This document shows, in pieces, positions 1-40,520 of a DNA stretch of 42,048 bases. Source of the DNA: Deferribacteres bacterium (lineage in GTDB: Bacteria; Nitrospirota; Thermodesulfovibrionia; UBA6902); contig JAADFS010000032.1 in NCBI GenBank assembly GCA_013152795.1, forward strand, positions 1 to 42,048. The letters run 5' to 3'. A model generated the notes under the pieces. That model did no database searches. It worked only from the letters and a program-made list of their open reading frames with translations, and was not told the origin of the DNA. The first letter of the stretch is position 1; every line of letters begins with the position of its first letter. The position numbers were made by a program, and so were the translations under genes.

Positions 1-2
1 CT

Positions 3-413
3 TATTATGATGAAAGGGCCAAGGAACGAAAACATGAAACAATAAAGTTTTGGAAAAATGTTTTGCCTGAGTATAAAGTCTATGTGTCGGAAATAACGAT
101 AAGAGAGTTAGAAAATACAAAGAATGAGGCATTAAGAAGGAAATTTAGACATCTTATTGAAAACTTCAAGGTGCTAAAGCCTGTTAAAAAGATTGGGGAT
201 TTAGCTGAAGCGTATATAGATAAAGGCGTGTTCTCAGAAAAATATATTGATGATGCGCTTCATGTAGCTACAGCTTCATACTATGGGATTTCTTATTTAG
301 TGTCCTGGAACTTTGAGCACTTGGTCAAGGTAAAGACAAGGAGAAGTGTAAACCTGGTTAATATGTTGGAAGGCTATAGGGAAGTCGAGATTGTATCACC
401 GCAGGAATTATAA
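3..413 (+). CDS. PIN-domain (VapC-like) protein, 5' end outside window
   Basis: Frame 3 is open from base 3, upstream of the TTG at 63 used by the ORF track. The product (..ERKHETIKFWKNVLPEYKVYVSEITIRELE..DDALHVATA..SWNFEHL) aligns along its length with the ORF at 41709-42048, which shows the missing N-terminus (KVYLETTIVSYL). The spacing of the N-terminal acidic residue, the mid Glu and the D-A-L-H motif fits a PIN fold. The gene is AT-rich relative to core genes. Confidence 0.6.
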   Translation, partial: YYDERAKERKHETIKFWKNVLPEYKVYVSEITIRELENTKNEALRRKFRHLIENFKVLKPVKKIGDLAEAYIDKGVFSEKYIDDALHVATASYYGISYLVSWNFEHLVKVKTRRSVNLVNMLEGYREVEIVSPQEL

Positions 414-424
414 AGAGGTGAACT

Positions 425-637
425 ATGAAAAAGATAGAATATTTTGATTATCTAAAGGTTGCTGAAGAGATGAAAGTGCCTGATGATGTGTTGAAGAAGA
501 TCGAAAAAGAGGTGAAGGAGGAATTCCCAGAGGATAAGATGATGTATGAACTTCATGTGTTAAGGGCACTAAATAGTAAATATTGGCAAAAGGAATATAA
601 AAGGAATATCAGATTAAAAACTGTAAGTAACAGATGA
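425..637 (+). CDS. Small Lys/Glu-rich protein co-transcribed with the PIN gene (possible cognate partner/antitoxin)
   Basis: The ATG lies 11 nt after the PIN stop and is preceded by AGAGGTG. The product is 70 aa. I recognise no family by eye. Confidence 0.45.
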   Translation: MKKIEYFDYLKVAEEMKVPDDVLKKIEKEVKEEFPEDKMMYELHVLRALNSKYWQKEYKRNIRLKTVSNR

Positions 638-676
638 TCTGGTAATTACACCTGGAAGGGCGGAGGAGACCAGGTT

Positions 677-745
677 TTGAATCTTGCAATCCTGAATTAA
701 AATTGAATCTTCAGATTTCATTCCGCCCCCCGACAACTGCCCCCT
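677..745. repeat. X-module repeat, copy 1 (TTGAATCTTGCAATCYTGAATTAAAATTGAATCTTCARAYTTCATTCCGCCCCCC..CAACTGCCCCC)
   Basis: A near-identical ~70-bp copy lies at 4887-4955 in the same orientation. The C-rich end recurs at 3721-3735 and, reverse-complemented, in the G-rich GCAGTTGTCAGGG modules at 5810-5840 and 21925-21945. Confidence 0.8.
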
Positions 746-960
746 GCCCCCTTTGATGAACGTTCATCTTTAATCATGTCGGCAATCCCTTCACTTATCC
801 GATTCAGAGAATTCATTACATCATCAAGAATGAAGCTAAGCCCGAACTGAGAGCAGTCTGAAAACTCAACAGGACATCGATCACTAAAAAAATCCGAAAT
901 AAAAGAAATTTTGGAACGGCAAATATTCAACTCATCTGCCAGCTTGATTAGATGTGACAT
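718..960 (-). pseudogene. HEPN-like gene remnant (C-terminal half only)
   Basis: The product ..SHLIKLADELNI..DRCPVEF..ILDDVMNSLNRISEGIADMIKDE parallels the C-terminal half of the intact HEPN protein at 4126-4518 (..THNLLYLIKLADIKI..TRYPEDF..EEYLKDAERVLKWLKQ). The LIKLAD 6-mer is identical and the R-x-P-x-[DE]-F spacing is similar. There is no N-terminal half upstream, and the 3' end reads into the X-module. Confidence 0.35.
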
Positions 961-967
961 CTCACAC

Positions 968-1033
968 CTCCATGTGATTTTTTCGCTTGCGGGTAGAATA
1001 AAACCCGCAGAGTTGCGAGTGGCTCACATGGAG
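968..1033 (+). other. Nested stem-loop in non-coding DNA
   Basis: CTCCATGTGA (968-977) is the exact reverse complement of TCACATGGAG (1024-1033). The enclosed sequence contains an inner hairpin, TGCGGG (988-993) / CCCGCA (1004-1009). Confidence 0.5.
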
Positions 1034-1304
1034 ACCACCCCGACACCTCACGATGCCAGGACTCTGCGGGTATTGAAACAAAAACACCCCTTTCTCGCAT
1101 CAACTGCGAGGGCCGGGGATAGCCCCCATGTGACTTATTCGCATTTTCAGTATATTCCCAAAGCATCAGAGCTGTCAACCATCAAAAAATATAGGCGGAC
1201 AAACATTTTTTTCTCCCCACTCTCCAGGCCCACCCCCTGCAAGCGGCTCCTCAGTGGCCTATTCCCGGAGCATATCGGCCTGCAGGCTTTTCCTCCAGAC
1301 AAAA

Positions 1305-1373
1305 CTTTACCCTTGCCTTGGGCTAATACTTCTGCTAATATTCTTTATATTAGCAGGGTTCACGTACAGGGGA
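1305..1373 (+). repeat. Long-tail repeat module, left copy (ends AGCAGGGTTCACGTACAGGGGA)
   Basis: About 80% identical by eye over ~69 bp to the reverse complement of 5673-5741. The 22-nt core at 1352-1373 differs from 5673-5694 at one base. Confidence 0.8.
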
Positions 1374-1641
1374 TTTGACCTCGGCTATTTTGCCGGTGTC
1401 TCACCCCATTAGCTCACGCCCATGCCGGGCGTACACAAGGAACTGCTGTGAAATCGAACCAGCATTATTGATTTGGGTTTTGATTATTTTTCTATTAAGA
1501 TCATTCTGATGCATGTTATCATTGTCAAGGGTTCGATTCACTGACTTTGCCGTTGGGCGGGGTCGGAAGAGTGATTAGTGCATTAGTTGGAGCAGTCACA
1601 TTAGGAAAAATCCAATGAAACGACGGAATGTGTACTCGATT

Positions 1642-1670
1642 TTGAGTAGTATCCATTGAGAGCTATAAAT
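1642..1670 (+). promoter_or_regulatory. Candidate sigma70-type promoter for the orphan gene
   Basis: TTGAGT (1642-1647), a 16-nt spacer, then TATAAA (1664-1669). This would give a ~250-nt 5' leader. The call rests on motifs only. Confidence 0.25.
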
Positions 1671-1805
1671 TATCGCCACGTTGTAGCTGCGCAAGTCACG
1701 ACTTGCCGGTCGCGACGTAACGTTTAGACCTTGGTGACTGGGAATTGCCCAGCTAAGGCGCCCTCCGAAGAAAGAGTTTGACTAGGAGGTTCATAAATTT
1801 AACAC

Positions 1806-1888
1806 CCTGCGGTCTCTGCCGCAGGAACCTTATTCGGGGTTTCCAAAGGGGATTACCCCTTTGGTTACTCGCAGGGTAAACGCCCTGC
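1806..1888 (+). promoter_or_regulatory. Three consecutive stem-loops in the leader of the orphan gene
   Basis: CCTGCGG/CCGCAGG (1806-1812/1819-1825). CCAAAGGGG-ATTA-CCCCTTTGG (1843-1864, perfect 9-bp stem). GCAGGG/CCCTGC (1871-1876/1883-1888). All lie within 125 nt upstream of the GAGG-ATG at 1921-1932. Confidence 0.5.
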
Positions 1889-1929
1889 AATGTGATCCGA
1901 CTTTACATCATATACGACACGAGGTAACC

Positions 1930-3462
1930 ATGTTTCTCGCATTACAATTCCCATTTGCAGACCTGCGCGAATTTCTTGGAGATGAGGGCGGGCGACTCCC
2001 ATCTCCGAAAGTGGCCTTACCTAAAAAGATAGGAAGAGATTTTATTCGCTCTTCAGGACTCATAAGGCGTCGCCGTAAAGGGGGAGTCAAGGAGTGGGCG
2101 GGTGAAGAATTGTATTGTAGTGGCGAATTAGCTCTGCGCTTCCCCAATCGCCTTGGGGATATGCAGTTCGGGACTGGTTCTGTAAAAGGGGCTGTGGTTG
2201 ACACGTTCCGTCGTTTCCATTCGAAAGGACCAGTAGCACGCTTCGAAGTCGCTTTTCAGCTTAGAGTCAAATACCGAGATTTTGATGAAGCCTCCGCGCC
2301 AGAGTGGTTCGCGCTTCTGCGGGATGTGCTTCAGATTCCTATGCATAAGCGATACATACCCCAGAAGAGGCTATCGACGAGCAAAATACTGAATCCTTCC
2401 GAGTCATTACAGGGCAGGCAGACGGAGATGCCAACAAAGGTCAATTTGATTCATGCTGGTAATGTCCTGGCACAACATTATCTTGCCGCTACAACAAATC
2501 GCCAGTTGATCCCACAGGTCGAACTTCAACCGTGGTGGTATTGTCCAGGAACGCCTGCTCTTATTGTCGAGATTAAGGAACCTTACTCGCTTCCTATGGC
2601 GCTTCCGCATGCACGAGAGGTACTCCATGTGCCAGATGCATCGGCTTCAATATTCCACGCTTGGCTGGAGTTTGACAATCAACCTTGCAGCGCTTGGTTT
2701 TTTGCCATGGGTGAAGGCGACCCGGACGCGGTTCGGCGACTCCGCATCAACTTGACTCGCCTACATGCCGAACGCGAATGCTTAAACCTTGTTCTCGCTA
2801 ACATCGGAACCACCCAAGGATGCAATATCAAGCTTGGAGATAATCTTAAGCAGTTAGATGCAATTCAGCAATATTTAAATGATGCCTTAGTGTCTATCCA
2901 GAAGCCTAAACGCTTCGGGATAAGTCAGGCTTCTATGTTTGAAGTCGCGCATGATGCTTTTGAAATCGCGATCGAAGGACAAGAAGCAACACTTCAGGAA
3001 ATGGGCTGGCAAGTAGCCGAAAAGGTAGATAACTACATTCGCCGTGCAGAAAACAACGCGAAAATCACTACGGTAATCAAAGGAGATGTCGTGACAACAA
3101 ACATTCAGTTGGATAACGTCTGCATTGGTGGTGACTTCAATGTCGCTACTGCAAAAAATATCGAGAAAAGTTTCAATAGAGTGAAAAAGGCAGAGGTGAA
3201 TAGCGACCTTAAGGAAAAACTAAAACTGCTTACCGTTGAAGTTGCTAAACTTGCAAAAGAGCTTCCGTCTGATAATGCTGAAAAACTTACGAGGGATCTC
3301 GATAATCTTACTTCCGAAGCACTTTCCGCGAAACCTCGCAGGAAATGGTATGAGCTTTCAGCAGAGGGTATCTTGGAAGCAGCGAAGGCCGTAGCCAATG
3401 TGACAGAATCTGTCACCAAGGCTGTAACGGCTGTGGTGGCCACATTGGCCGGATTAAGTTGA
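1930..3462 (+). CDS. Orphan 511-aa protein with no family recognised by eye; alpha-helical/coiled C-terminal tail ending in a short hydrophobic segment
   Basis: This is a long uninterrupted ORF. The ATG at 1930 has GAGG 5 nt upstream, so I prefer it to the TTG at 1861 in the ORF track. Arg codons are mostly CGN (8 of the first 10), whereas neighbouring host genes use AGR (all 4 Arg in the first ~75 codons of cheY). I see no P-loop, nuclease or RT motifs. Confidence 0.7.
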   Translation: MFLALQFPFADLREFLGDEGGRLPSPKVALPKKIGRDFIRSSGLIRRRRKGGVKEWAGEELYCSGELALRFPNRLGDMQFGTGSVKGAVVDTFRRFHSKGPVARFEVAFQLRVKYRDFDEASAPEWFALLRDVLQIPMHKRYIPQKRLSTSKILNPSESLQGRQTEMPTKVNLIHAGNVLAQHYLAATTNRQLIPQVELQPWWYCPGTPALIVEIKEPYSLPMALPHAREVLHVPDASASIFHAWLEFDNQPCSAWFFAMGEGDPDAVRRLRINLTRLHAERECLNLVLANIGTTQGCNIKLGDNLKQLDAIQQYLNDALVSIQKPKRFGISQASMFEVAHDAFEIAIEGQEATLQEMGWQVAEKVDNYIRRAENNAKITTVIKGDVVTTNIQLDNVCIGGDFNVATAKNIEKSFNRVKKAEVNSDLKEKLKLLTVEVAKLAKELPSDNAEKLTRDLDNLTSEALSAKPRRKWYELSAEGILEAAKAVANVTESVTKAVTAVVATLAGLS

Positions 3463-3720
3463 ACTGGAAGCGCTGTGCGGTGAAAGGCGTACGTAATCGA
3501 TTTTTCAAGGCAAAAATAGGGACTATGGGGTGAAATCTTCATAGTTGAGCGTGCCCAGCGAAGGGTACAGCTTACTAACGGGAGAAAGCCCCGAGATGGT
3601 AAAAGCCGGAGCCATGTAGCTTGGATGGCAGGTGGCGATGGAAACGTTGCCTTCTGAAGCCCATCGACAAAAAAGTCGGCGGAAGGCCGGTGAGCGAATA
3701 TCCGGGTTGTAACATATCCC

Positions 3721-3864
3721 TGACAACTGCCCCCTGTCCCCTGTAAACGTTCATCTTTAATCATGACAGCAATCCCATCACTTATTCGATCCAGAGAATC
3801 CATCACATCATCAAGAATGAAGCTAAGCCCGAACTGAGAGCTGTCTGAAAACTCAACAGGACAT
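3721..3864 (-). pseudogene. Second HEPN 3'-end fragment (direct repeat of 731-877)
   Basis: About 88% identical by eye to 731-877 in the same orientation. It encodes CPVEFSDSSQFGLSFILDDVMDSLDRISDGIAVMIKDER. It is cut off at 3864/3865, ~10 bp from the mosaic repeat that starts at 3875. Confidence 0.45.
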
Positions 3865-3874
3865 TGTTGGGTAA

Positions 3875-4090
3875 ACCTTCATTTTGCATAAAGGGCAGGA
3901 GTGCCTGCCGTAAAACCGTTATAAAGCGATAGGATTCTAACAGAACAGGGTGCAGGAAGAAACAAGTCCCCCTCCCGTTGGGAGGGGGTTAGGGGGAGGG
4001 GGCTGAGCTGTTATCCCTGAAGGAATCGCAGATAAAGCTTCTCCGGCAGCCTCCTCTGCCCCACCGGCAGGATTTATGCCACTGTAAGGT
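3875..4090 (-). repeat. ACCTTA-hairpin mosaic element with G-rich cargo
   Basis: Left end: ACCTTCATTTTGCATAAAGGGCAGGAGTGCCTGCC..TTATAAAGCGAT. Cargo: CAGGGTGCAGGAAGAAACAAGTCCCCCTCCCGTTGGGAGGGGGTTAGGGGGAGGGGGCTGAGCTGTTA. Right end: ATCGCAGATAAAGC..GGCAGCCTCCTCTGCC..ATGCCACTGTAAGGT. The sister copy is at 21839-22083. Confidence 0.85.
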
Positions 4091-4125
4091 TTACTTATGA
4101 CCGGTACTATAATAATATAGAGTGT

Positions 4126-4518
4126 ATGAGGAAAGATACGAAAAGTTTTATGCTTTCATCTGAATATGATTTAACAACCGCGAGCCATATGTATAAAACA
4201 GGAAGATATGTGTATGTTGTCTTCATGTGTCATATGGCAATAGAAAAGATGCTGAAAGCTATTGCCGCTGAAGTGACTGGCAAGGCGCCCCCAAGAACGC
4301 ATAACCTTCTGTACCTTATTAAACTTGCCGATATAAAAATCCCGCAGGACCTCTTTGATTTTGTCGCAAAGATAAACAATGCCAGCGTAGTCACAAGGTA
4401 TCCTGAAGATTTCAACAAACTTATAGAGAGCTATCCTGAAAAGGTTGTTGAAGAATATCTTAAAGATGCTGAAAGAGTTCTTAAATGGCTAAAACAAAAC
4501 GAGAAGTTGAAAACATAA
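4126..4518 (+). CDS. HEPN-domain protein (toxin-type partner of the downstream nucleotidyltransferase)
   Basis: 130 aa, with ..PPRTHNLLYLIKLAD.. and ..TRYPEDF.. motifs typical of small HEPN proteins. It overlaps the MNT gene by 34 nt. Confidence 0.75.
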   Translation: MRKDTKSFMLSSEYDLTTASHMYKTGRYVYVVFMCHMAIEKMLKAIAAEVTGKAPPRTHNLLYLIKLADIKIPQDLFDFVAKINNASVVTRYPEDFNKLIESYPEKVVEEYLKDAERVLKWLKQNEKLKT

Positions 4519-4796
4519 TTGAACGTTATAAGGCGGCCCTTCGTGAACTTGGGATAGTTCCCAAGGATATTATCCTGTATGGTTCATACGCCGGGGGTAA
4601 ACCACGTGAAGACAGCGATATTGACTTGATCGTTATCTCTGATGATTTTGCCCGAATGAATCTTCGTGAAAGGCTTGAGATTCTCGGCCTTGCGGCTGGA
4701 AGAGTCTTTGAACCGATAGAGGCTATCGGTTATACAGAGGAGGAATTAAGGGATACAAAAGGCACTTTTCTTGAGGAAATCCTGTCTTCCCTCTGA
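4485..4796 (+). CDS. Minimal nucleotidyltransferase (MNT), HEPN-MNT pair
   Basis: LYGSYAGGKPREDSDIDLIVISD matches the GSxxxG..SDxDL Pol-beta-type NTase motif. 103 aa. Confidence 0.85.
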   Translation: MAKTKREVENIIERYKAALRELGIVPKDIILYGSYAGGKPREDSDIDLIVISDDFARMNLRERLEILGLAAGRVFEPIEAIGYTEEELRDTKGTFLEEILSSL

Positions 4797-4886
4797 AACC
4801 TGCCCTTTTCGCGTCTGTCCCGTGCCTGCTCGTGTCAGGTTTTGACATGATACATATAATCAGAGAAAAGGCCCGAGAATCCGCTC

Positions 4887-4955
4887 TTGAATCTTGCAAT
4901 CTTGAATTAAAATTGAATCTTCAAACTTCATTCCGCCCCCCCGGCAACTGCCCCC
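4887..4955. repeat. X-module repeat, copy 2
   Basis: About 93% identical by eye to 677-745. It sits between the MNT stop and the DUF2059 gene stop. Confidence 0.8.
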
Positions 4956-4966
4956 GGATGTTTATT

Positions 4967-5482
4967 TCAACTGATTGGTGTTTTTTCGGTTAAATCTCTT
5001 AATTCTTTTTGATGTTTTTCCACGAGTGCGTTTATTTGTGGTGTGAGTTTCCAAACTTTCTGCTGGCTGAGTTCCAACATTGAATTTATAAGATAAGGTG
5101 TTTTTTCTACCATCTTTTTCCCGATAGGGCTTTCATAAAATTTTATAAGTTCTTTAATTTCATCAATGGTATAAACGGATAGATAAACGTCAATGTAGTC
5201 ATCTTTGATCTTCTCCCATGACAGCTCTCTTGTAAGAAGATCGAGCAGTTCGGAGTTCTGTTTTTTTAACAGCGGTTTTAATTCCTCTGACATGTCTGTC
5301 TGTTCCACTTGTTTGGAATAAATCTGTTTCAATTGATTTGTGAATTGCTCCATAATCTTTGGGGAGCCCATTAAAATGAGAAGTCTCTCAACATCCCTGC
5401 GATTGTCATCGGTATTATCAGCGAAAACTGTTCCACAACATGCAAGAAGTAATATTGTGAATATACACAGTATTTTTTTCAT
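4967..5482 (-). CDS. DUF2059-like periplasmic protein
   Basis: I place the start at MKKILCIFTILLLACCGTVFA (signal peptide, ATG at 5482) rather than 5536. The C-terminal FYESPIGKKMVEK motif is typical of DUF2059. Confidence 0.6.
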   Translation of the reverse strand: MKKILCIFTILLLACCGTVFADNTDDNRRDVERLLILMGSPKIMEQFTNQLKQIYSKQVEQTDMSEELKPLLKKQNSELLDLLTRELSWEKIKDDYIDVYLSVYTIDEIKELIKFYESPIGKKMVEKTPYLINSMLELSQQKVWKLTPQINALVEKHQKELRDLTEKTPIS

Positions 5483-5672
5483 GCAATACCATCTTAAACG
5501 TCGATTAAATGCATGTCTGAACCGTACAATTACCAATGTAACAACCTGTAAACAATAGAATAATCCACCTCAAAATCAGCACTGCCGACACGTATTCTTC
5601 TATGTACTAAAGGGTGAGCGCCACGCGGAATGGACTCACGAGACTTGGTACCGTGTAAGTATCGGCGTTGAG

Positions 5673-5840
5673 TCCCCTATACGTGAACCCTGCTGATATT
5701 ATTAATGTTACCAAAAGTATCAACACGAGGCAAGGGAAAAAACCACAGGGCGAAAGGGCAGAAAAGTCTGCCGGAAAACGTTATAAAGCGATGGGAATAA
5801 TTACAGAGGGTGCAGTTGTCAGGGGGCAGGGTGCAGGGAG
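5673..5840 (-). repeat. Composite repeat: long-tail module (5673-5741), hairpin/End-C-like module (5751-5792) and G-rich GCAGTTGTCAGGG module (5807-5840)
   Basis: 5673-5741 is the inverted partner of 1305-1373. GGCAGAaaagTCTGCC is at 5757-5772, followed by GGAAAACGTTATAAAGCGAT. The G-rich part overlaps the last codons of the GDYXXLXY gene. Confidence 0.8.
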
Positions 5841-6313
5841 TTTCTTCCCAAGACCCTGAAATCTTCTCCCCGGAGGCCGACGAGAACGCTTTTACCCGAG
5901 GAATCAACTTTTAATTCAGCGTATCGTGCATTCGCATACAACTTCGCATCCCCTTCCTGAAAGAAAAATGACTCTGCGCCAAACCTCGGGCCTCTGCGGT
6001 TGCGATAGAAGAGGAGATGCTCTCCATTTCTCAATGGTTCTCCTTTATGGACTCTCACAAACTTTGCAACGCTGTTGCCATCCAGTGAAACCACGATACA
6101 CCCCTTATCAGCTAATTGTTTTTCGGGGATACTCCCTGCAATGGAATATCGCAGGATCATATAGTCCCCCTGTATAAGGGAACGGGGGTCAACCGGCGCC
6201 AGTCTCAAAAGCATTGTCCGGCCGCCGGCAAGTGTGATTTCTTTTTTAATGATGAGAAAGTTAACAACTATCAAGACAAAGAGAGTTGCTGCCACTAAAA
6301 ATAGTTTTTTCAA
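5819..6313 (-). CDS. GDYXXLXY-domain protein
   Basis: Contains the GDYMILRY motif and an N-terminal TM helix. I place the start at TTG 6313, with GGGAGGAAG 7 nt upstream. It overlaps the upstream stop in a TTGA arrangement, which suggests translational coupling. Confidence 0.7.
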   Translation of the reverse strand: MKKLFLVAATLFVLIVVNFLIIKKEITLAGGRTMLLRLAPVDPRSLIQGDYMILRYSIAGSIPEKQLADKGCIVVSLDGNSVAKFVRVHKGEPLRNGEHLLFYRNRRGPRFGAESFFFQEGDAKLYANARYAELKVDSSGKSVLVGLRGEDFRVLGRNSLHPAP

Positions 6314-7371
6314 ACCGCTTCCTCCCTGCGGCTGAGAAGGTTTGCAATCCACCGGACGATAAGGAGAAGCAACCCGCTTCCGGCCAGTATCCATGATTTG
6401 TATGCAAGGTCGATATTTAATGCATAATAGAACAACACGAGAAAGCCCGGTAAGAAAAGACAGGAGAGACCTGTTAACACGCGGTCTCCATACATGTATC
6501 CCGTCACTAATAAACCGATGGCAACAAGAATTCCCGGGGTGGTGAAAATGCCCAGCAGTATGGTGCAGCCAATTACGAGGATTAACCAGGGTTGCCGGAG
6601 CCTGCTTAATCCCCCCGCCAGATTTATAAACATATATACCATTCCGGCAGATATCAGGACGCTTGAAGGCCAGTCCGGCTCACTGAATCCGGAAATCCGC
6701 AAGTCTATACGCGTAAGGTTCAGAAACAGCAGTGTTGCCGGCAACATCGCTGCGGCCGAATAAACCAGCGGCACAAGAGATGAATGAATCTTTCCGCGTA
6801 ATATCAGTATGCCGAAGAGAATTGTTTCTGCGGCTATTATTACGTGCATCAGATAAGGTATCTGTTCTTTAACGACCCATGCGGTGGCTAGAGCGGCTGC
6901 GGCAAGCGGTGAAAGAAAACGATAAATATTATTGCGGAAAAGGGGATAAACAATTCCGCATATGACAGCCTGGGCAATGACAAATGTCGAAAGACTGAAA
7001 TCCCGGGCAATATCAGGGATGCCTGAAAGGACCAGGATATTGCCTGAAAAAGCCAGTGCAAGAGAAAGTTGGCTGAGAAAGGTGGATTTGCGCCTTCTTG
7101 AAATGATTATTGCAATGCCAAGGAAAACGGCCCCGAATATGGCAGCGCCGATACCGTGTTTTATTAATTCTGATACGCCGAGGAACATGATAATGAAAAT
7201 TGCAGAAAACCAGGCTCCGATACCGTAAAGTATGCGGATGTAGAGGGGATCCCGAGCTTTAATTTTATCATCGAGGACTCTGAATATCTCATCCATTTCC
7301 CCTGGACTCAACATCTCCCTGATTTCCCGGCGCTCGAAAAGTTCCTTAAGAGTACAGGATTTGCCCTTCAA
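6310..7371 (-). CDS. Polytopic membrane protein, DUF4401-like
   Basis: 353 aa with multiple TM helices. It is the middle gene of the recurrent DUF2157/DUF4401/GDYXXLXY trio and overlaps both neighbours by 4 nt. Confidence 0.55.
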   Translation of the reverse strand: MKGKSCTLKELFERREIREMLSPGEMDEIFRVLDDKIKARDPLYIRILYGIGAWFSAIFIIMFLGVSELIKHGIGAAIFGAVFLGIAIIISRRRKSTFLSQLSLALAFSGNILVLSGIPDIARDFSLSTFVIAQAVICGIVYPLFRNNIYRFLSPLAAAALATAWVVKEQIPYLMHVIIAAETILFGILILRGKIHSSLVPLVYSAAAMLPATLLFLNLTRIDLRISGFSEPDWPSSVLISAGMVYMFINLAGGLSRLRQPWLILVIGCTILLGIFTTPGILVAIGLLVTGYMYGDRVLTGLSCLFLPGFLVLFYYALNIDLAYKSWILAGSGLLLLIVRWIANLLSRREEAV

Positions 7372-8378
7372 ACGTTGTCGCCCTCCATTTCATCTGTCAT
7401 TGCCGCCTTTATTTTCCTGAGCCTGACCGCCGCTCCGCTTGCCACACCGAGTATAATAAGTGCAAATAAGAGAGAAGCCGCTGCGTCACTTCCGATAATC
7501 TCAAACAGGAGTTTGCCTGTTAATGCCAGCAGAATAATGCAGACGTTCATAACGATAATAGAAAGCGAAGTCATATCGCGGAGCCTGAAGCGGTAACAGA
7601 TGTATCCGCTTATGGAAGCAGCGGTCCATATGAACGCTGTAAGAATCATGATGATTGTCCTGTTCCTTTCCAGAATCAGAAGAATAGTTGGTACTGACAA
7701 TGGAACAAGAACTGCAAGCAGCAGGGTGATGCGGAGCCATCGGCCCCTTAACCAGTCAAGCCCCTTTATCAGGGCTTTTTCTCTCAGTATGAGAAACAGG
7801 CCGTTAAGTAGAGCAATTGTCATGAAAAGCGTTTCATAAGAGAGGGAATGGTTTGGATAGCCTACCTGCTGCCAGTAAAGAATAATTCCTGCATTAGTGA
7901 TAATCAACCACAGAACCCACAGCGCGGCAAATTCCGAGAGTACAACCCAGGGAAGAATGAGAATCGCCCATCCCCTGAAAAGCTCAAAGGCATCAGCTCC
8001 TGTTTGGTAAATCTGTCCGTATACTGCCAGGAGAACCCCTGCGAGGACAGATGAGCTCAGTATAAGCACCTTGCCGCTCAGCCTGTCTGTTCCGCGGATG
8101 TATGAAACAGCCACGCATGCTGCAATCCCGAACTCAATGAGCCCGAACTTGAGAAATTTCCCCATTGAGGACCAGTTGTAGGCGAAGAAAAAGACTATAC
8201 CGGCCAGTACTAATGTGCTGCCGAAAAAAAGGAGCATATGGTTTGCCCATGCGAACCATGCAGTGGAAGGGCGCAATATCCTGCAGGCTGCATCAAACGC
8301 CTTTTCGTTCAATAATCCTTCCTGGTAAAGCCTGTGGATTGTTCTGATATCAGCTTTTCTTTCCAAAGAAGAGGGCAT
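7368..8378 (-). CDS. Polytopic membrane protein, DUF2157-like
   Basis: 336 aa. A soluble N-terminal ~45 aa is followed by TM helices (..FFFAYNWSSMGKF..). It is the first gene of the trio. Confidence 0.55.
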   Translation of the reverse strand: MPSSLERKADIRTIHRLYQEGLLNEKAFDAACRILRPSTAWFAWANHMLLFFGSTLVLAGIVFFFAYNWSSMGKFLKFGLIEFGIAACVAVSYIRGTDRLSGKVLILSSSVLAGVLLAVYGQIYQTGADAFELFRGWAILILPWVVLSEFAALWVLWLIITNAGIILYWQQVGYPNHSLSYETLFMTIALLNGLFLILREKALIKGLDWLRGRWLRITLLLAVLVPLSVPTILLILERNRTIIMILTAFIWTAASISGYICYRFRLRDMTSLSIIVMNVCIILLALTGKLLFEIIGSDAAASLLFALIILGVASGAAVRLRKIKAAMTDEMEGDNV

Positions 8379-8617
8379 TGTCTGCTTACAGGAGTTTTAG
8401 GCCGGCCTTAATGCCCGGCATTCATTTTTTATTTTTCTCCGTTTCCTCTCAATGACGCTATTAATTTAACGACACCGTCATTCCCATAGAACTTGTATGT
8501 GTGGCGTGTGGCAGACTAAGACAGCCAGGCAAAACCAACAAGAGAGGACGGCTACGAAAAAGACCGCACGCCGACACGTAGTAAGCATACCAGTCTCAAA
8601 CAGATTTGGCAACTTAT

Positions 8618-8682
8618 CATTACAGCGGCATAAAATACCGTCAGGGGGGCAGACTTCTCTGCCTGTTTATGCAACATTAAGC
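8618..8682 (+). repeat. ACCTTA-hairpin mosaic element, minimal single-hairpin copy
   Basis: CATTACAGCGGCATAAAATACCG..GGCAGACTTCTCTGCC..TGTTTATGCAACATTAAGC. Confidence 0.75.
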
Positions 8683-9013
8683 TTATCTGTTTGCAGATTG
8701 CGACTCGCTTTACTTGCTTCTGTCATATCACGCAGATTGGAATCCGCCGGGCAGTTTTTATGGATTACGTACCCGGATAGAAATTGAACTGTGTTATAAT
8801 ATTTTAACTCGGTTAAAGGCATATTCCCGACTTTTCCATAGGGGGCGAATAATCAATGTTTGCAAACAAACGTGAACAGTTGCCGTTTTTCTGTGCTTCC
8901 GGCTTTTGTCCTTGCCGGTGTCGTAGAGCGCGCCGGGATCGTTTCTCAAGAAGTGATTACTTGTGCTTTTGCCTTGCGGGACGGCAGGCAATTGAATGAA
9001 GGAGGAGATTATT

Positions 9014-9217
9014 ATGAAATCAAGAGGACTATGTGTAATTCTGGGTGTGCTTATGATTGCCCTGTTATTTCCGTATTCAGCAGCAGCCGACTGGCAGATA
9101 GAGTGTCTGGATTGTCCGCGTAATTTTGACTGGTTAAGCAACAGGGCGCTGGCATTCTTCCGGGAATCCTCATATTGTCTATACAGGTTCAAACGCTGTG
9201 TATTATGCTTACTATGA
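9014..9217 (+). CDS. Signal-peptide-bearing N-terminal fragment of the repeat protein (out of frame with the body)
   Basis: GGAGGAG lies 6 nt before ATG 9014. The product MKSRGLCVILGVLMIALLFPYSAAADWQIECLDCPRNFDWLSNRALA then turns to nonsense, with a stop at 9215-9217. Confidence 0.6.
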   Translation: MKSRGLCVILGVLMIALLFPYSAAADWQIECLDCPRNFDWLSNRALAFFRESSYCLYRFKRCVLCLL

Positions 9218-21838: not shown

Positions 21839-22083
21839 AATCTTAATATTGCATAAACGCGGCAGGAGAGTTGGGGGAACAAAGTTCAGAGTTCAAAGTT
21901 CGGAGTTCAAAGTTAAAGGTTCAGGCTGCGGTTGTCAGGGTGCAGGAAGAAACAAGTCCCCCCTCCCTTTGGGAGGGGGTCAGGGGGAGGGGGCTGAGCT
22001 GTTAGCACTGAAGGTATCGCAGATAAAGCTTTTACGGGAGCCTCTCCTGTGCTGCCGGCAATGTTTTTGTGCCACTGTAGGGT
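21839..22083 (-). repeat. ACCTTA-hairpin mosaic element with heptamer-microsatellite and G-rich cargo, inside the che operon
   Basis: Order of parts: ATCTTAATATTGCATAAACGCGGCAGGAGAG; GGGGAACAA; (AGTTCRR)x6 at 21882-21923; GCGGTTGTCAGGGTGCAGG; the G-module; ATCGCAGATAAAGC; GTGCCACTGTAGGGT. Confidence 0.85.
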
Positions 22084-25802: not shown

Positions 25803-25858
25803 ATCGCTTTATAAAGGTTTTCCGGCAGGCTCTCCTGCCCCACATATGCAACATTAAG
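25803..25858 (+). repeat. ACCTTA-hairpin mosaic element, End-C half copy (between fliK and flgD)
   Basis: ATCGCTTTATAAAGGTTTTCCGGCAGGCTCTCCTGCCCCACATATGCAACATTAAG. A 14-nt End-A stub, ACCTTACAGTGGCA, sits at 25101-25114 between flgD and flgE. Confidence 0.8.
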
Positions 25859-27690: not shown

Positions 27691-27705
27691 CCCGTTTGCA
27701 GGTAA

Positions 27706-27920
27706 GCCTTACAGTGGCAAAAATACTGCAAGCGGGGCAGAGGAGTCTGCCGGAAAAGCTTTATCTGCGATTCCTTCAGGAAATATTCCGCACGGCATAT
27801 TGACGTCCTTTTGAACTTCACTTTCCGTTACTTCCTGCAACAGAGACGTATTTCCAATATCTTATCGCTTTATAAAGGTTTTCCGGCAGACTCCTCTGCC
27901 CGTTTATGCAACATTAAGGT
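27706..27920 (+). repeat. ACCTTA-hairpin mosaic element, full copy (End-A, core-B, End-C)
   Basis: About 85% identical by eye to 40304-40520 over ~215 bp. Contains GCCTTACAGTGGCA..GGCAGAGGAGTCTGCC..GCTTTATCTGCGAT, then CCTTCAGGAAATATTCCGCAC..TTCCTGCAA, then ATCGCTTTATAAAGGTTTTCCGGCAGACTCCTCTGCCCGTTTATGCAACATTAAGGT. Confidence 0.9.
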
Positions 27921-33664: not shown

Positions 33665-33738
33665 GCCCCCTTAGCTCAGCAGGATAGAGCACTGGTTTCC
33701 TAAACCAGGTGTCGCACGTTCGAGTCGTGCAGGGGGCG
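33665..33738 (+). tRNA. tRNA-Arg (anticodon CCT)
   Basis: Manual cloverleaf: acceptor GCCCCCT/AGGGGGC, D stem GCTC/GAGC, anticodon stem CTGGT/ACCAG with loop TTCCTAA, T stem GCACG/CGTGC with loop TTCGAGT. CCA is not encoded. Confidence 0.9.
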
Positions 33739-40197: not shown

Positions 40198-40283
40198 TGG
40201 CGGAGGAGGTAGGATTCGAACCCACGGAGCTTTCGCTCTACGGTTTTCAAGACCGTCGCCTTCGTCCACTCGGCCACTCCTCC
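40198..40283 (-). tRNA. tRNA-Ser (anticodon TGA), CCA encoded
   Basis: The reverse complement folds as a class II tRNA: acceptor GGAGGAG/CTCCTCC, D stem GCC/GGC, anticodon stem ACGGT/ACCGT with loop CTTGAAA, long variable arm GAGC-GAAA-GCTC, T loop TTCGAAT, and 3' GCCA. Confidence 0.9.
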
Positions 40284-40303: not shown

Positions 40304-40520
40304 GCCTTACAGTGGCATTAAAATACCGCCTGCGGGCAGGAGAGCCTGCCGGAAAAGCTTTATCTGCGATACCTTCAGGAAATATTCCGCACAGCATATG
40401 GACATCTTTTGGAACTTCACTTTTCGTTATTTCCTGCAATAAAGACTTATTTCCGATATCCCATCGCTTTATAAAGGTTTTACGGCAGGCTCTCCTGCCT
40501 GTTTTATGCAACATTAAGGT
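40304..40520 (+). repeat. ACCTTA-hairpin mosaic element, full copy (End-A, core-B, End-C)
   Basis: Sister of 27706-27920. Its hairpins read GGCAGGAGAGCCTGCC and GGCAGGCTCTCCTGCC. Confidence 0.9.

Follow-up and report, generated by a model that had tools for sequence, protein, structure and literature searches.

The stretch of DNA analyzed here (the window) is the 42,048-nucleotide (nt) contig JAADFS010000032.1 from a Deferribacteres bacterium (assembly GCA_013152795.1), read along its forward strand. Near its left end lies an intact open reading frame (ORF) of 510 amino acids (aa) on the plus strand (1930-3462) that belongs to the protein family PF27061, and upstream of it lies a structured, family-specific 5' leader RNA of about 128 nt (1671-1798, plus strand). 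An initial annotation, made from the sequence without database searches, had described positions 961-3720 as a compositionally foreign orphan cassette between toxin-antitoxin modules and as a candidate for an undescribed single-gene or RNA-plus-protein system. The ORF, which it counted at 511 aa, is real, and its homologues start alike. The stretch of about 970 nt before the gene (961-1929) has no credible ORF and many stem-loops, as had been noted, and it folds far better than shuffled sequences. The RNA-plus-protein guess was borne out insofar as a family-specific leader precedes the gene, but this leader takes up only 128 nt of the gap.

The description of the gene as an orphan did not hold. 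A word-indexed search returned 70 full-length homologues with 27-73% identity from a Chlorobium metagenome-assembled genome, Paraburkholderia, Steroidobacter, Pseudomonas, Lysobacter and many metagenomes. When 1.84 billion representative sequences were searched with a profile, 3,143 clusters (50% identity) were returned at E ≤0.001, 1,062 of them at E ≤1e-30. Nearly all of the 3,143 clusters are 470-530 aa long and match from end to end. The window protein and all 70 homologues are assigned to PF27061.1 over their full length; this assignment is a precomputed one, and the Pfam set scanned here did not include the PF27061 model. The protein is a new member of a family that is catalogued in Pfam but functionally opaque.

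The homologues share the start MFLxLQFPFADxR (MFLALQFPFAD in the window) and, therefore, the start codon was placed at 1930. Among the invariant residues are D11, R13, R40, R48, W56, E59, R95, W256, R269, R272, R277, H279, E281, Y315 and N416. An AlphaFold2 model was obtained with a mean predicted local distance difference test score of 84 and a predicted template modeling score of 0.83. It begins with a beta-rich N-terminal alpha/beta domain (residues 1-262). A long Arg-rich helix that contains RRLRINLTRLHAERE comes next, then a small beta unit, and the C-terminal part is a bundle of helices. An insertion of about 27 aa in the N-terminal domain (residues ~141-169, nt ~2350-2436), modeled with low confidence, is shared only by the three closest homologues.

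Scans of the protein against Pfam, NCBIfam, PADLOC and PHROGs gave no significant match, only a marginal PDC-M14B match in the tail. The initial annotation could place no motif in the protein, which agrees with these scans. A profile search of all Protein Data Bank (PDB) sequences found no relative. Foldseek searches of PDB and BFVD likewise found none; the lowest E was 0.09 with the full model, and 0.12 when the N-terminal domain was modeled by itself. The family has thousands of members in several bacterial phyla and is without a fold relative in PDB. Foldseek hints of CoxG, Pol mu and a small alarmone synthetase were treated as noise (E ≥0.1, template modeling score ≤0.17), and matches of the C-terminal tail to designed pentatricopeptide repeat proteins in PDB were set aside as artefacts of composition. 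The C-terminal 140 aa used as a query retrieved just two short fragments. A reading of R272...H279 as the Rx4-6H motif of HEPN proteins was rejected since the motif lies in the middle of the long helix and no HEPN match was found. A phage origin was also rejected, as no relatives were found in GenBank phages or IMG/VR.

About 75 related loci were fetched from genomes, metagenomes and plasmids. When the ORFs flanking the gene at 60 loci were compared all against all, no recurrent neighbor emerged, and Pfam and PADLOC scans of 144 flanking ORFs gave scattered matches only, with no recurrent family. A conserved protein partner was, therefore, rejected, and the gene is stand-alone. The scattered matches include the defense genes IetA, MzaA, DRT reverse transcriptase, SoFic, AriA and ZorB, as well as integrases and one resolvase. 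Two plasmid-borne homologues adjoin methyltransferase, helicase, restriction and integrase genes. In Pseudomonas sp. H9 (locus L003), the gap upstream of the homologue (7069-7825) is full of ~107-bp tandem repeats that resemble repetitive extragenic palindromic (REP) elements.

The leader was found by comparing the regions upstream of the gene. With BLASTN, about 120 nt directly 5' of the gene were common to the closest homologues and nothing more; the leader is conserved with loci L006, L008 and L009. RNAalifold on these four sequences gave three helices with compensatory changes in five pairs. In the window, these are P1, a long bulged hairpin (1678-1718), P2, a hairpin (1729-1758) that occupies the place of a tRNA-like cloverleaf in some relatives, and P3, a hairpin with the arms CCUCC (1762-1766) and GGAGG (1785-1789). 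A covariance model built from the four sequences (R1) and a second model built from the R1 matches (R2) score the window leader at 138 and 126 bits, respectively; it is the sole R1 or R2 match in the window and the best-scoring member. R2 gave 22 matches in 799,659 bases searched on both strands. All 22 lie on the sense strand, and those outside the window end at most 53 nt before the start codon of the family gene. The relatives that carry them belong to Proteobacteria, Acidobacteriota and Actinomycetes; Steroidobacter, Variovorax, Azoarcus, Thermoanaerobaculia and one actinomycete are among the hosts.

Covariation was then quantified. In a structure-aware alignment, 92% of the cells are paired, compared to 42-55% when the partners are slid by 1-3 columns, both sides have changed in 23 of 25 pairs, and none of 500 shuffles reached the observed values. 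Structure-aware alignments lean towards the covariance model. Plain MAFFT and RNAalifold applied to ten divergent leaders recovered only P3, with a U-A to C-G switch. P3 is, thus, solid and supported independently of the model, while the support for P1 and P2 is good within the close clade and, elsewhere, they are plausible according to the model-based alignments. The leader matched none of the 4,227 families of Rfam 15, whether the window copy or ten other loci were searched. Judged by Rfam 15 and a literature search, it is an undescribed motif of a familiar kind. It combines conserved, covarying structure in distant taxa with a platform that overlaps the ribosome site or forms a terminator and, judged from sequence, has the features of a putative cis-regulatory leader.

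The P3 consensus is GCRCC-CCCCC-GAUGCUCGNCUA-GGGGG, with the arm variants CCUCC/GGAGG and CCCUC/GAGGG. Of 62 leaders, 32 contain the strict pattern, for which 0.0016 occurrences per 180 nt are expected, and relaxed versions, many followed by a U-run, are found in most of the remaining loci. The gene is nearly always accompanied by a structured leader. In many loci of Acidobacteriota, Myxococcota and Bacteroidota type, P3 has a long stem and, behind it, a U-run reaching up to the start codon, and therefore has the shape of an intrinsic terminator. The 3' arm of these terminator-shaped hairpins is the only Shine-Dalgarno candidate. The G-rich arm lies 5-10 nt before the AUG in several relatives, within an overall range of 5-25 nt. 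In six loci (L043, L047, L048, L053, L054 and L012), the P3 loop reads AUG CUY GNC UAG, a three-codon mini-ORF ending in a conserved CUAG. This mini-ORF (AUG CUC GNC UAG) was rejected as a coding feature since it occurs in some proteobacterial leaders only and its AUG is replaced by AAG or ACG elsewhere.

Some relatives carry a tRNA-like domain in the leader. ARAGORN called cloverleaf pseudo-tRNAs directly upstream of the PF27061 genes, inside the leader, at four loci: L011 (7873-7949, anticodon loop of 8 nt), L012 (4629-4700, anticodon ACA), L015 (1839-1914, anticodon AAC) and the plasmid locus L086 (5880-5951, anticodon AAC). Their D and T arms are canonical, their anticodon loops are abnormal and their acceptor stems are imperfect. 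To our knowledge, the anticodons AAC and ACA are not normally used by bacteria. Seven of 62 leaders have a canonical T-arm hairpin between -58 and -115, whereas 0.005 per 250 nt would be expected. Two loci with the tRNA-like element are plasmid-borne, and at L085 the element has its anticodon loop deleted. No cloverleaf or T-arm was seen in the window leader; the window has just two tRNA matches, one at 33665 and one at 40201.

In the window, a 131-nt insert of four hairpins (1799-1929, plus strand) separates the leader from the gene. It is absent from all homologous loci and has no second copy in the window. In its outer helix, ACCUU (1827-1831) pairs with GAGGU (1921-1925) and thereby hides the Shine-Dalgarno sequence of the ORF itself (GAGG), and the occlusion of the ribosome-binding site is, in the predicted fold, kept through this helix. 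Compared to shuffled sequences, the fold z-score is -7.6 for the insert (1799-1929), -5.7 for 1660-1935 and -4.2 for 961-1670. The last of these intervals, which lies between the leader and a divergent 80-aa ORF, is a hairpin-rich spacer. None of the homologous loci resembles it in sequence, and promoter-like sites in it are no commoner than chance. The spacer is presumably at least in part a divergent promoter region.

The codon usage of the gene is atypical. The initial annotation had observed that Arg is mostly encoded by CGN codons, whereas cheY uses only AGR; this is correct, with CGN at 25 of 33 Arg codons compared to a host mean fraction of 0.34, and at 0/5 and 0/4 in two cheY-like genes. 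The G+C content at third codon positions (GC3) is 0.447 compared to 0.578 ± 0.077 for the other ORFs, and the codon-usage distance is the largest among window ORFs of at least 300 codons. The description as compositionally foreign stands for codon usage but not for bulk GC, which at 0.47-0.49 equals the window average. GC3 is also low, 0.35-0.53, across 1-9200, below the che and flagellar part; this range includes DUF2059 and GDYXXLXY/DUF4401/DUF2157 genes. The atypical composition is, therefore, not confined to the cassette, and the foreign signal exists at the codon level only.

Next, the flanks of the gene were inspected. On the right, a HEPN-MNT toxin-antitoxin pair (4126-4796, plus strand) lies outside the module. 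It was called correctly in the initial annotation (HEPN, E 1.8e-22 in Pfam; MNT, matched as NTP_transf_2, E 5.8e-10). On the left are two small ORFs (63-637, plus strand), the first of which is weakly PIN-like. The PIN module claimed there is below the Pfam cut-off (E 0.0044). The divergent 80-aa ORF (718-960, minus strand) is preceded by a GGAGG ribosome site and matched no family. Two direct repeats of ~158 bp and ~90% identity bracket the region at 728-888 and 3718-3875. These had been reported at ~145 bp as 3' remnants of HEPN genes; the repeats are real, but the HEPN relation is weak (pairwise E 0.046) and copy 1 lies inside the intact 80-aa ORF with its own GGAGG site. Copy 2 is a truncated copy of the 3' end of this ORF and duplicates only its last ~45 codons. 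The 80-aa ORF probably represents a genuine small gene and not what is left of a HEPN gene.

Copy 2 abuts a truncated 5' part of a group II intron (3475-3717, plus strand) that the initial annotation had missed. It starts with GUGCG 12 nt past the stop codon of the 510-aa ORF, and its end coincides exactly with the repeat junction at 3717/3718. The RF02003 match (3576-3717; 87.3 bits, E 6e-18) covers the full model. Intron domains 5 and 6 (RF00029) gave no match even at E up to 5; neither these domains nor a reverse transcriptase were found anywhere in the window, and no ORF follows. The intron is, therefore, a fragment. The setting as a defense or conflict island, as first proposed, is supported by the toxin-antitoxin genes, the repeats, the intron fragment and the variable contexts of the homologues; a defense role is putative.

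We give an even chance to the reading that positions 1671-3462 form a horizontally acquired, self-contained module in which the leader gates the PF27061 gene in cis as an off-switch. The module would consist of the leader RNA followed by the single gene, whose sole recurrent partner is the leader. A horizontal origin is suggested by the codon statistics, by the flanking toxin-antitoxin genes, repeats and intron fragment, and by the plasmid-borne homologues. In such a switch, P3 would pair its C-rich arm with the G-rich, Shine-Dalgarno-like arm and, together with the U-run present in many relatives, would terminate transcription and/or hide the ribosome site until some signal opens it. P1 and P2, or the tRNA-like domain in place of P2, may sense or transmit this signal. 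The protein, with its Arg/His/Glu-rich N-terminal domain and C-terminal helical bundle, is probably harmful when freely made and may be an effector of the conflict or abortive-infection type. Such harm would account for tight control of the gene as well as for its stand-alone habit, its patchy horizontal distribution and its setting in an island.

Several points weigh against this cis-acting off-switch. In the window's own P3, the GGAGG and the start codon are 140 nt apart and a U-run is absent; this P3 is probably not coupled to the start codon, and the canonical switch may be lost in this copy. The covariation of P1 and P2 outside the close clade comes from model-fitted alignments. Toxicity and a defense function are suggested by the context of the gene only. 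The homologues, whose neighborhoods the initial annotation proposed to tabulate, sometimes lie beside defense or mobile genes, but many of their neighbors are ordinary metabolic genes and none recurs. The leader could be a separate small RNA. Lastly, the Pfam label of the family implies a protease role, which was neither confirmed nor traced.

This label is 'Gasdermin_protease', as given in the precomputed contig annotation, and would make the protein a protease acting as the activator of a gasdermin or of a comparable pore-forming effector. Besides the name, one locus is in line with it: in Paraburkholderia nemoris (L001), a trypsin-like protease gene (5482-7125) lies upstream of the homologue. 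Of the 144 flanking ORFs scanned, just two have trypsin domains. The gasdermins of bacterial operons are ~240-270 aa long. In bacterial gasdermin systems, the gasdermin is paired with an adjacent C14, CHAT or similar protease, and the known proteases, encoded beside the gasdermin, are of the C14, CHAT, trypsin or subtilase type (Johnson et al., 10.1101/2021.06.07.447441). Beside the window gene and its homologues (60 loci, 144 flanking ORFs), neither a gasdermin nor a recurrent partner was found. The ORFs scanned near the window gene are toxin-antitoxin, DUF2059 and GDYXXLXY/DUF4401/DUF2157 genes, with GlnRS, che and flagellar genes at a greater distance. Neither a Ser or Cys nucleophile that is invariant nor an HExxH motif is present in the alignment, and no protease or gasdermin was matched by sequence or fold with the full-length protein or the N-terminal domain alone. 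A literature search returned nothing on PF27061 or on 'gasdermin protease' as a phrase. The name is, thus, unsupported by neighborhood, motifs or fold. We rejected a gasdermin or protease identity on these three grounds, and the role that the label implies appears very unlikely. What the locus shares with bacterial gasdermin-protease operons is a defense-island-like setting and possibly a latent toxic effector held inactive; it differs in having neither a gasdermin nor a known protease domain and in a control that is apparently at the RNA level.

Other explanations concern the RNA. The leader might be a separate noncoding RNA that binds or neutralizes the protein in the manner of type III toxin-antitoxin systems, with the P3 terminator setting the ratio of RNA to read-through mRNA. 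In the type III systems ToxIN, CptIN and TenpIN, tandem antitoxin RNA repeats lie upstream of an endoribonuclease gene. The likeness is a structured RNA directly ahead of one protein gene and separated from it by a terminator-like hairpin. In favor of this explanation, P3 resembles a terminator and carries U-runs in many relatives, where it leaves no space for a promoter in front of the gene; RNA and gene are the only conserved pair; and the protein has seven invariant arginines plus a His and a Glu. Here, though, there are no tandem RNA repeats (Tandem Repeats Finder over 600-4200 gave two trivial short repeats), and the protein is three times larger than ToxN-type RNases, unrelated to them and without similarity to ToxN/AbiQ-type or other known RNases. 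No family or fold match to ToxN/AbiQ, CptN or TenpN was found. In several relatives, the 3' arm of P3 is the only Shine-Dalgarno sequence, which fits control in cis. We consider a separate RNA partner unlikely. Another possible explanation takes the protein as a tRNA-binding or tRNA-modifying one whose tRNA-like leader would serve as an autoregulatory mimic, as in the thrS operator; alternatively, the leader would be a substrate of tRNA-processing enzymes, in which case expression would report tRNA metabolism during infection. The pseudo-tRNAs of L011, L012, L015 and L086, the excess of T-arm hairpins and the two plasmid loci speak for it. The thrS operator and T-box are tRNA-mimic and tRNA-sensing leaders, and they resemble the present case in having a tRNA-shaped RNA in the 5' leader near a terminator or Shine-Dalgarno-sequestering hairpin. 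The differences are that the gene does not encode an aminoacyl-tRNA synthetase, that no T-box or other Rfam match was found, and that the cloverleaf is recognizable in a minority of leaders and absent from the window. Foldseek also found no tRNA-binding or tRNA-modifying fold, and the two tRNA versions taken together seem quite improbable. If the upstream conservation were instead a functionless relic, it would consist of remnants of tRNA-gene integration sites and of terminators of upstream genes. Genomic islands often integrate at tRNA genes, and real tRNA genes lie within a few kb at L004, L021 and L054. The abnormal anticodons of the pseudo-tRNAs and the missing anticodon loop at L085 do not fit such a relic, the loop sequence and position of P3 are kept across phyla whatever the upstream gene, and the compensatory changes argue for selection on pairing. 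A relic is, thus, hardly credible.

A broader proposal, which we put forward as speculative and rather doubtful, is that the PF27061 gene and its leader form a widespread, undescribed RNA-protein conflict module in which effector release would depend on how the cell's tRNA machinery fares during phage attack. The tRNA-like RNA would then be read by tRNA-processing enzymes or by the protein itself, and the effector would have a new fold. A parallel to the leader is offered by the DUF3800 motifs, which are Weinberg-type candidates among orphan gene-associated RNAs: these are likewise conserved structured RNAs tied to one family without an assigned function, in mobile or defense contexts. The leader motif differs in not being among the 4,227 families of Rfam 15. 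If the leader does sense tRNA metabolism or infection, it would represent a new class of regulatory RNA acting on a new effector. Otherwise, a common 'hypothetical protein' still gains a clean annotation, with a warning about the name that Pfam gives it. P3, the pseudo-tRNA and the invariant residues D11, R13, H279 and E281 are concrete handles for experiments.

The remaining features of the window are repeats and ordinary genes. A 77-nt repeat follows both toxin-antitoxin modules (677-752 and 4887-4963, ~93% identical), and parts of it recur in inverted orientation at 5807-5839. Its last letters are CCCCGACAACTGCCCCC, with which direct repeat copy 2 also begins at 3718. The two copies have no stable fold (z +1.2 and +0.8). 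Integron attC sites are imperfect palindromes that fold as hairpins at cassette boundaries. An integron cassette was rejected since the 77-nt repeats lack a stable fold and the GTT...AAC order in P1 is wrong for the attC consensus. A 68-nt inverted repeat (1306-1373 and 5673-5740, 81% complementary) contains the palindrome CTGCTAATATTCTTTATATTAGCAG. Further right, the window carries GlnRS, diguanylate cyclase, and che and flagellar genes, which are ordinary chromosomal genes. Intergenic repeats resembling REP elements or miniature inverted-repeat transposable elements are dispersed at 3890-4094, 21936-22044, 27702-27780, 25803-25843 and 40346-40499; they are ~90-92% identical and include the G-rich hairpin CCCCCTCCCAACGGGAGGGGG.

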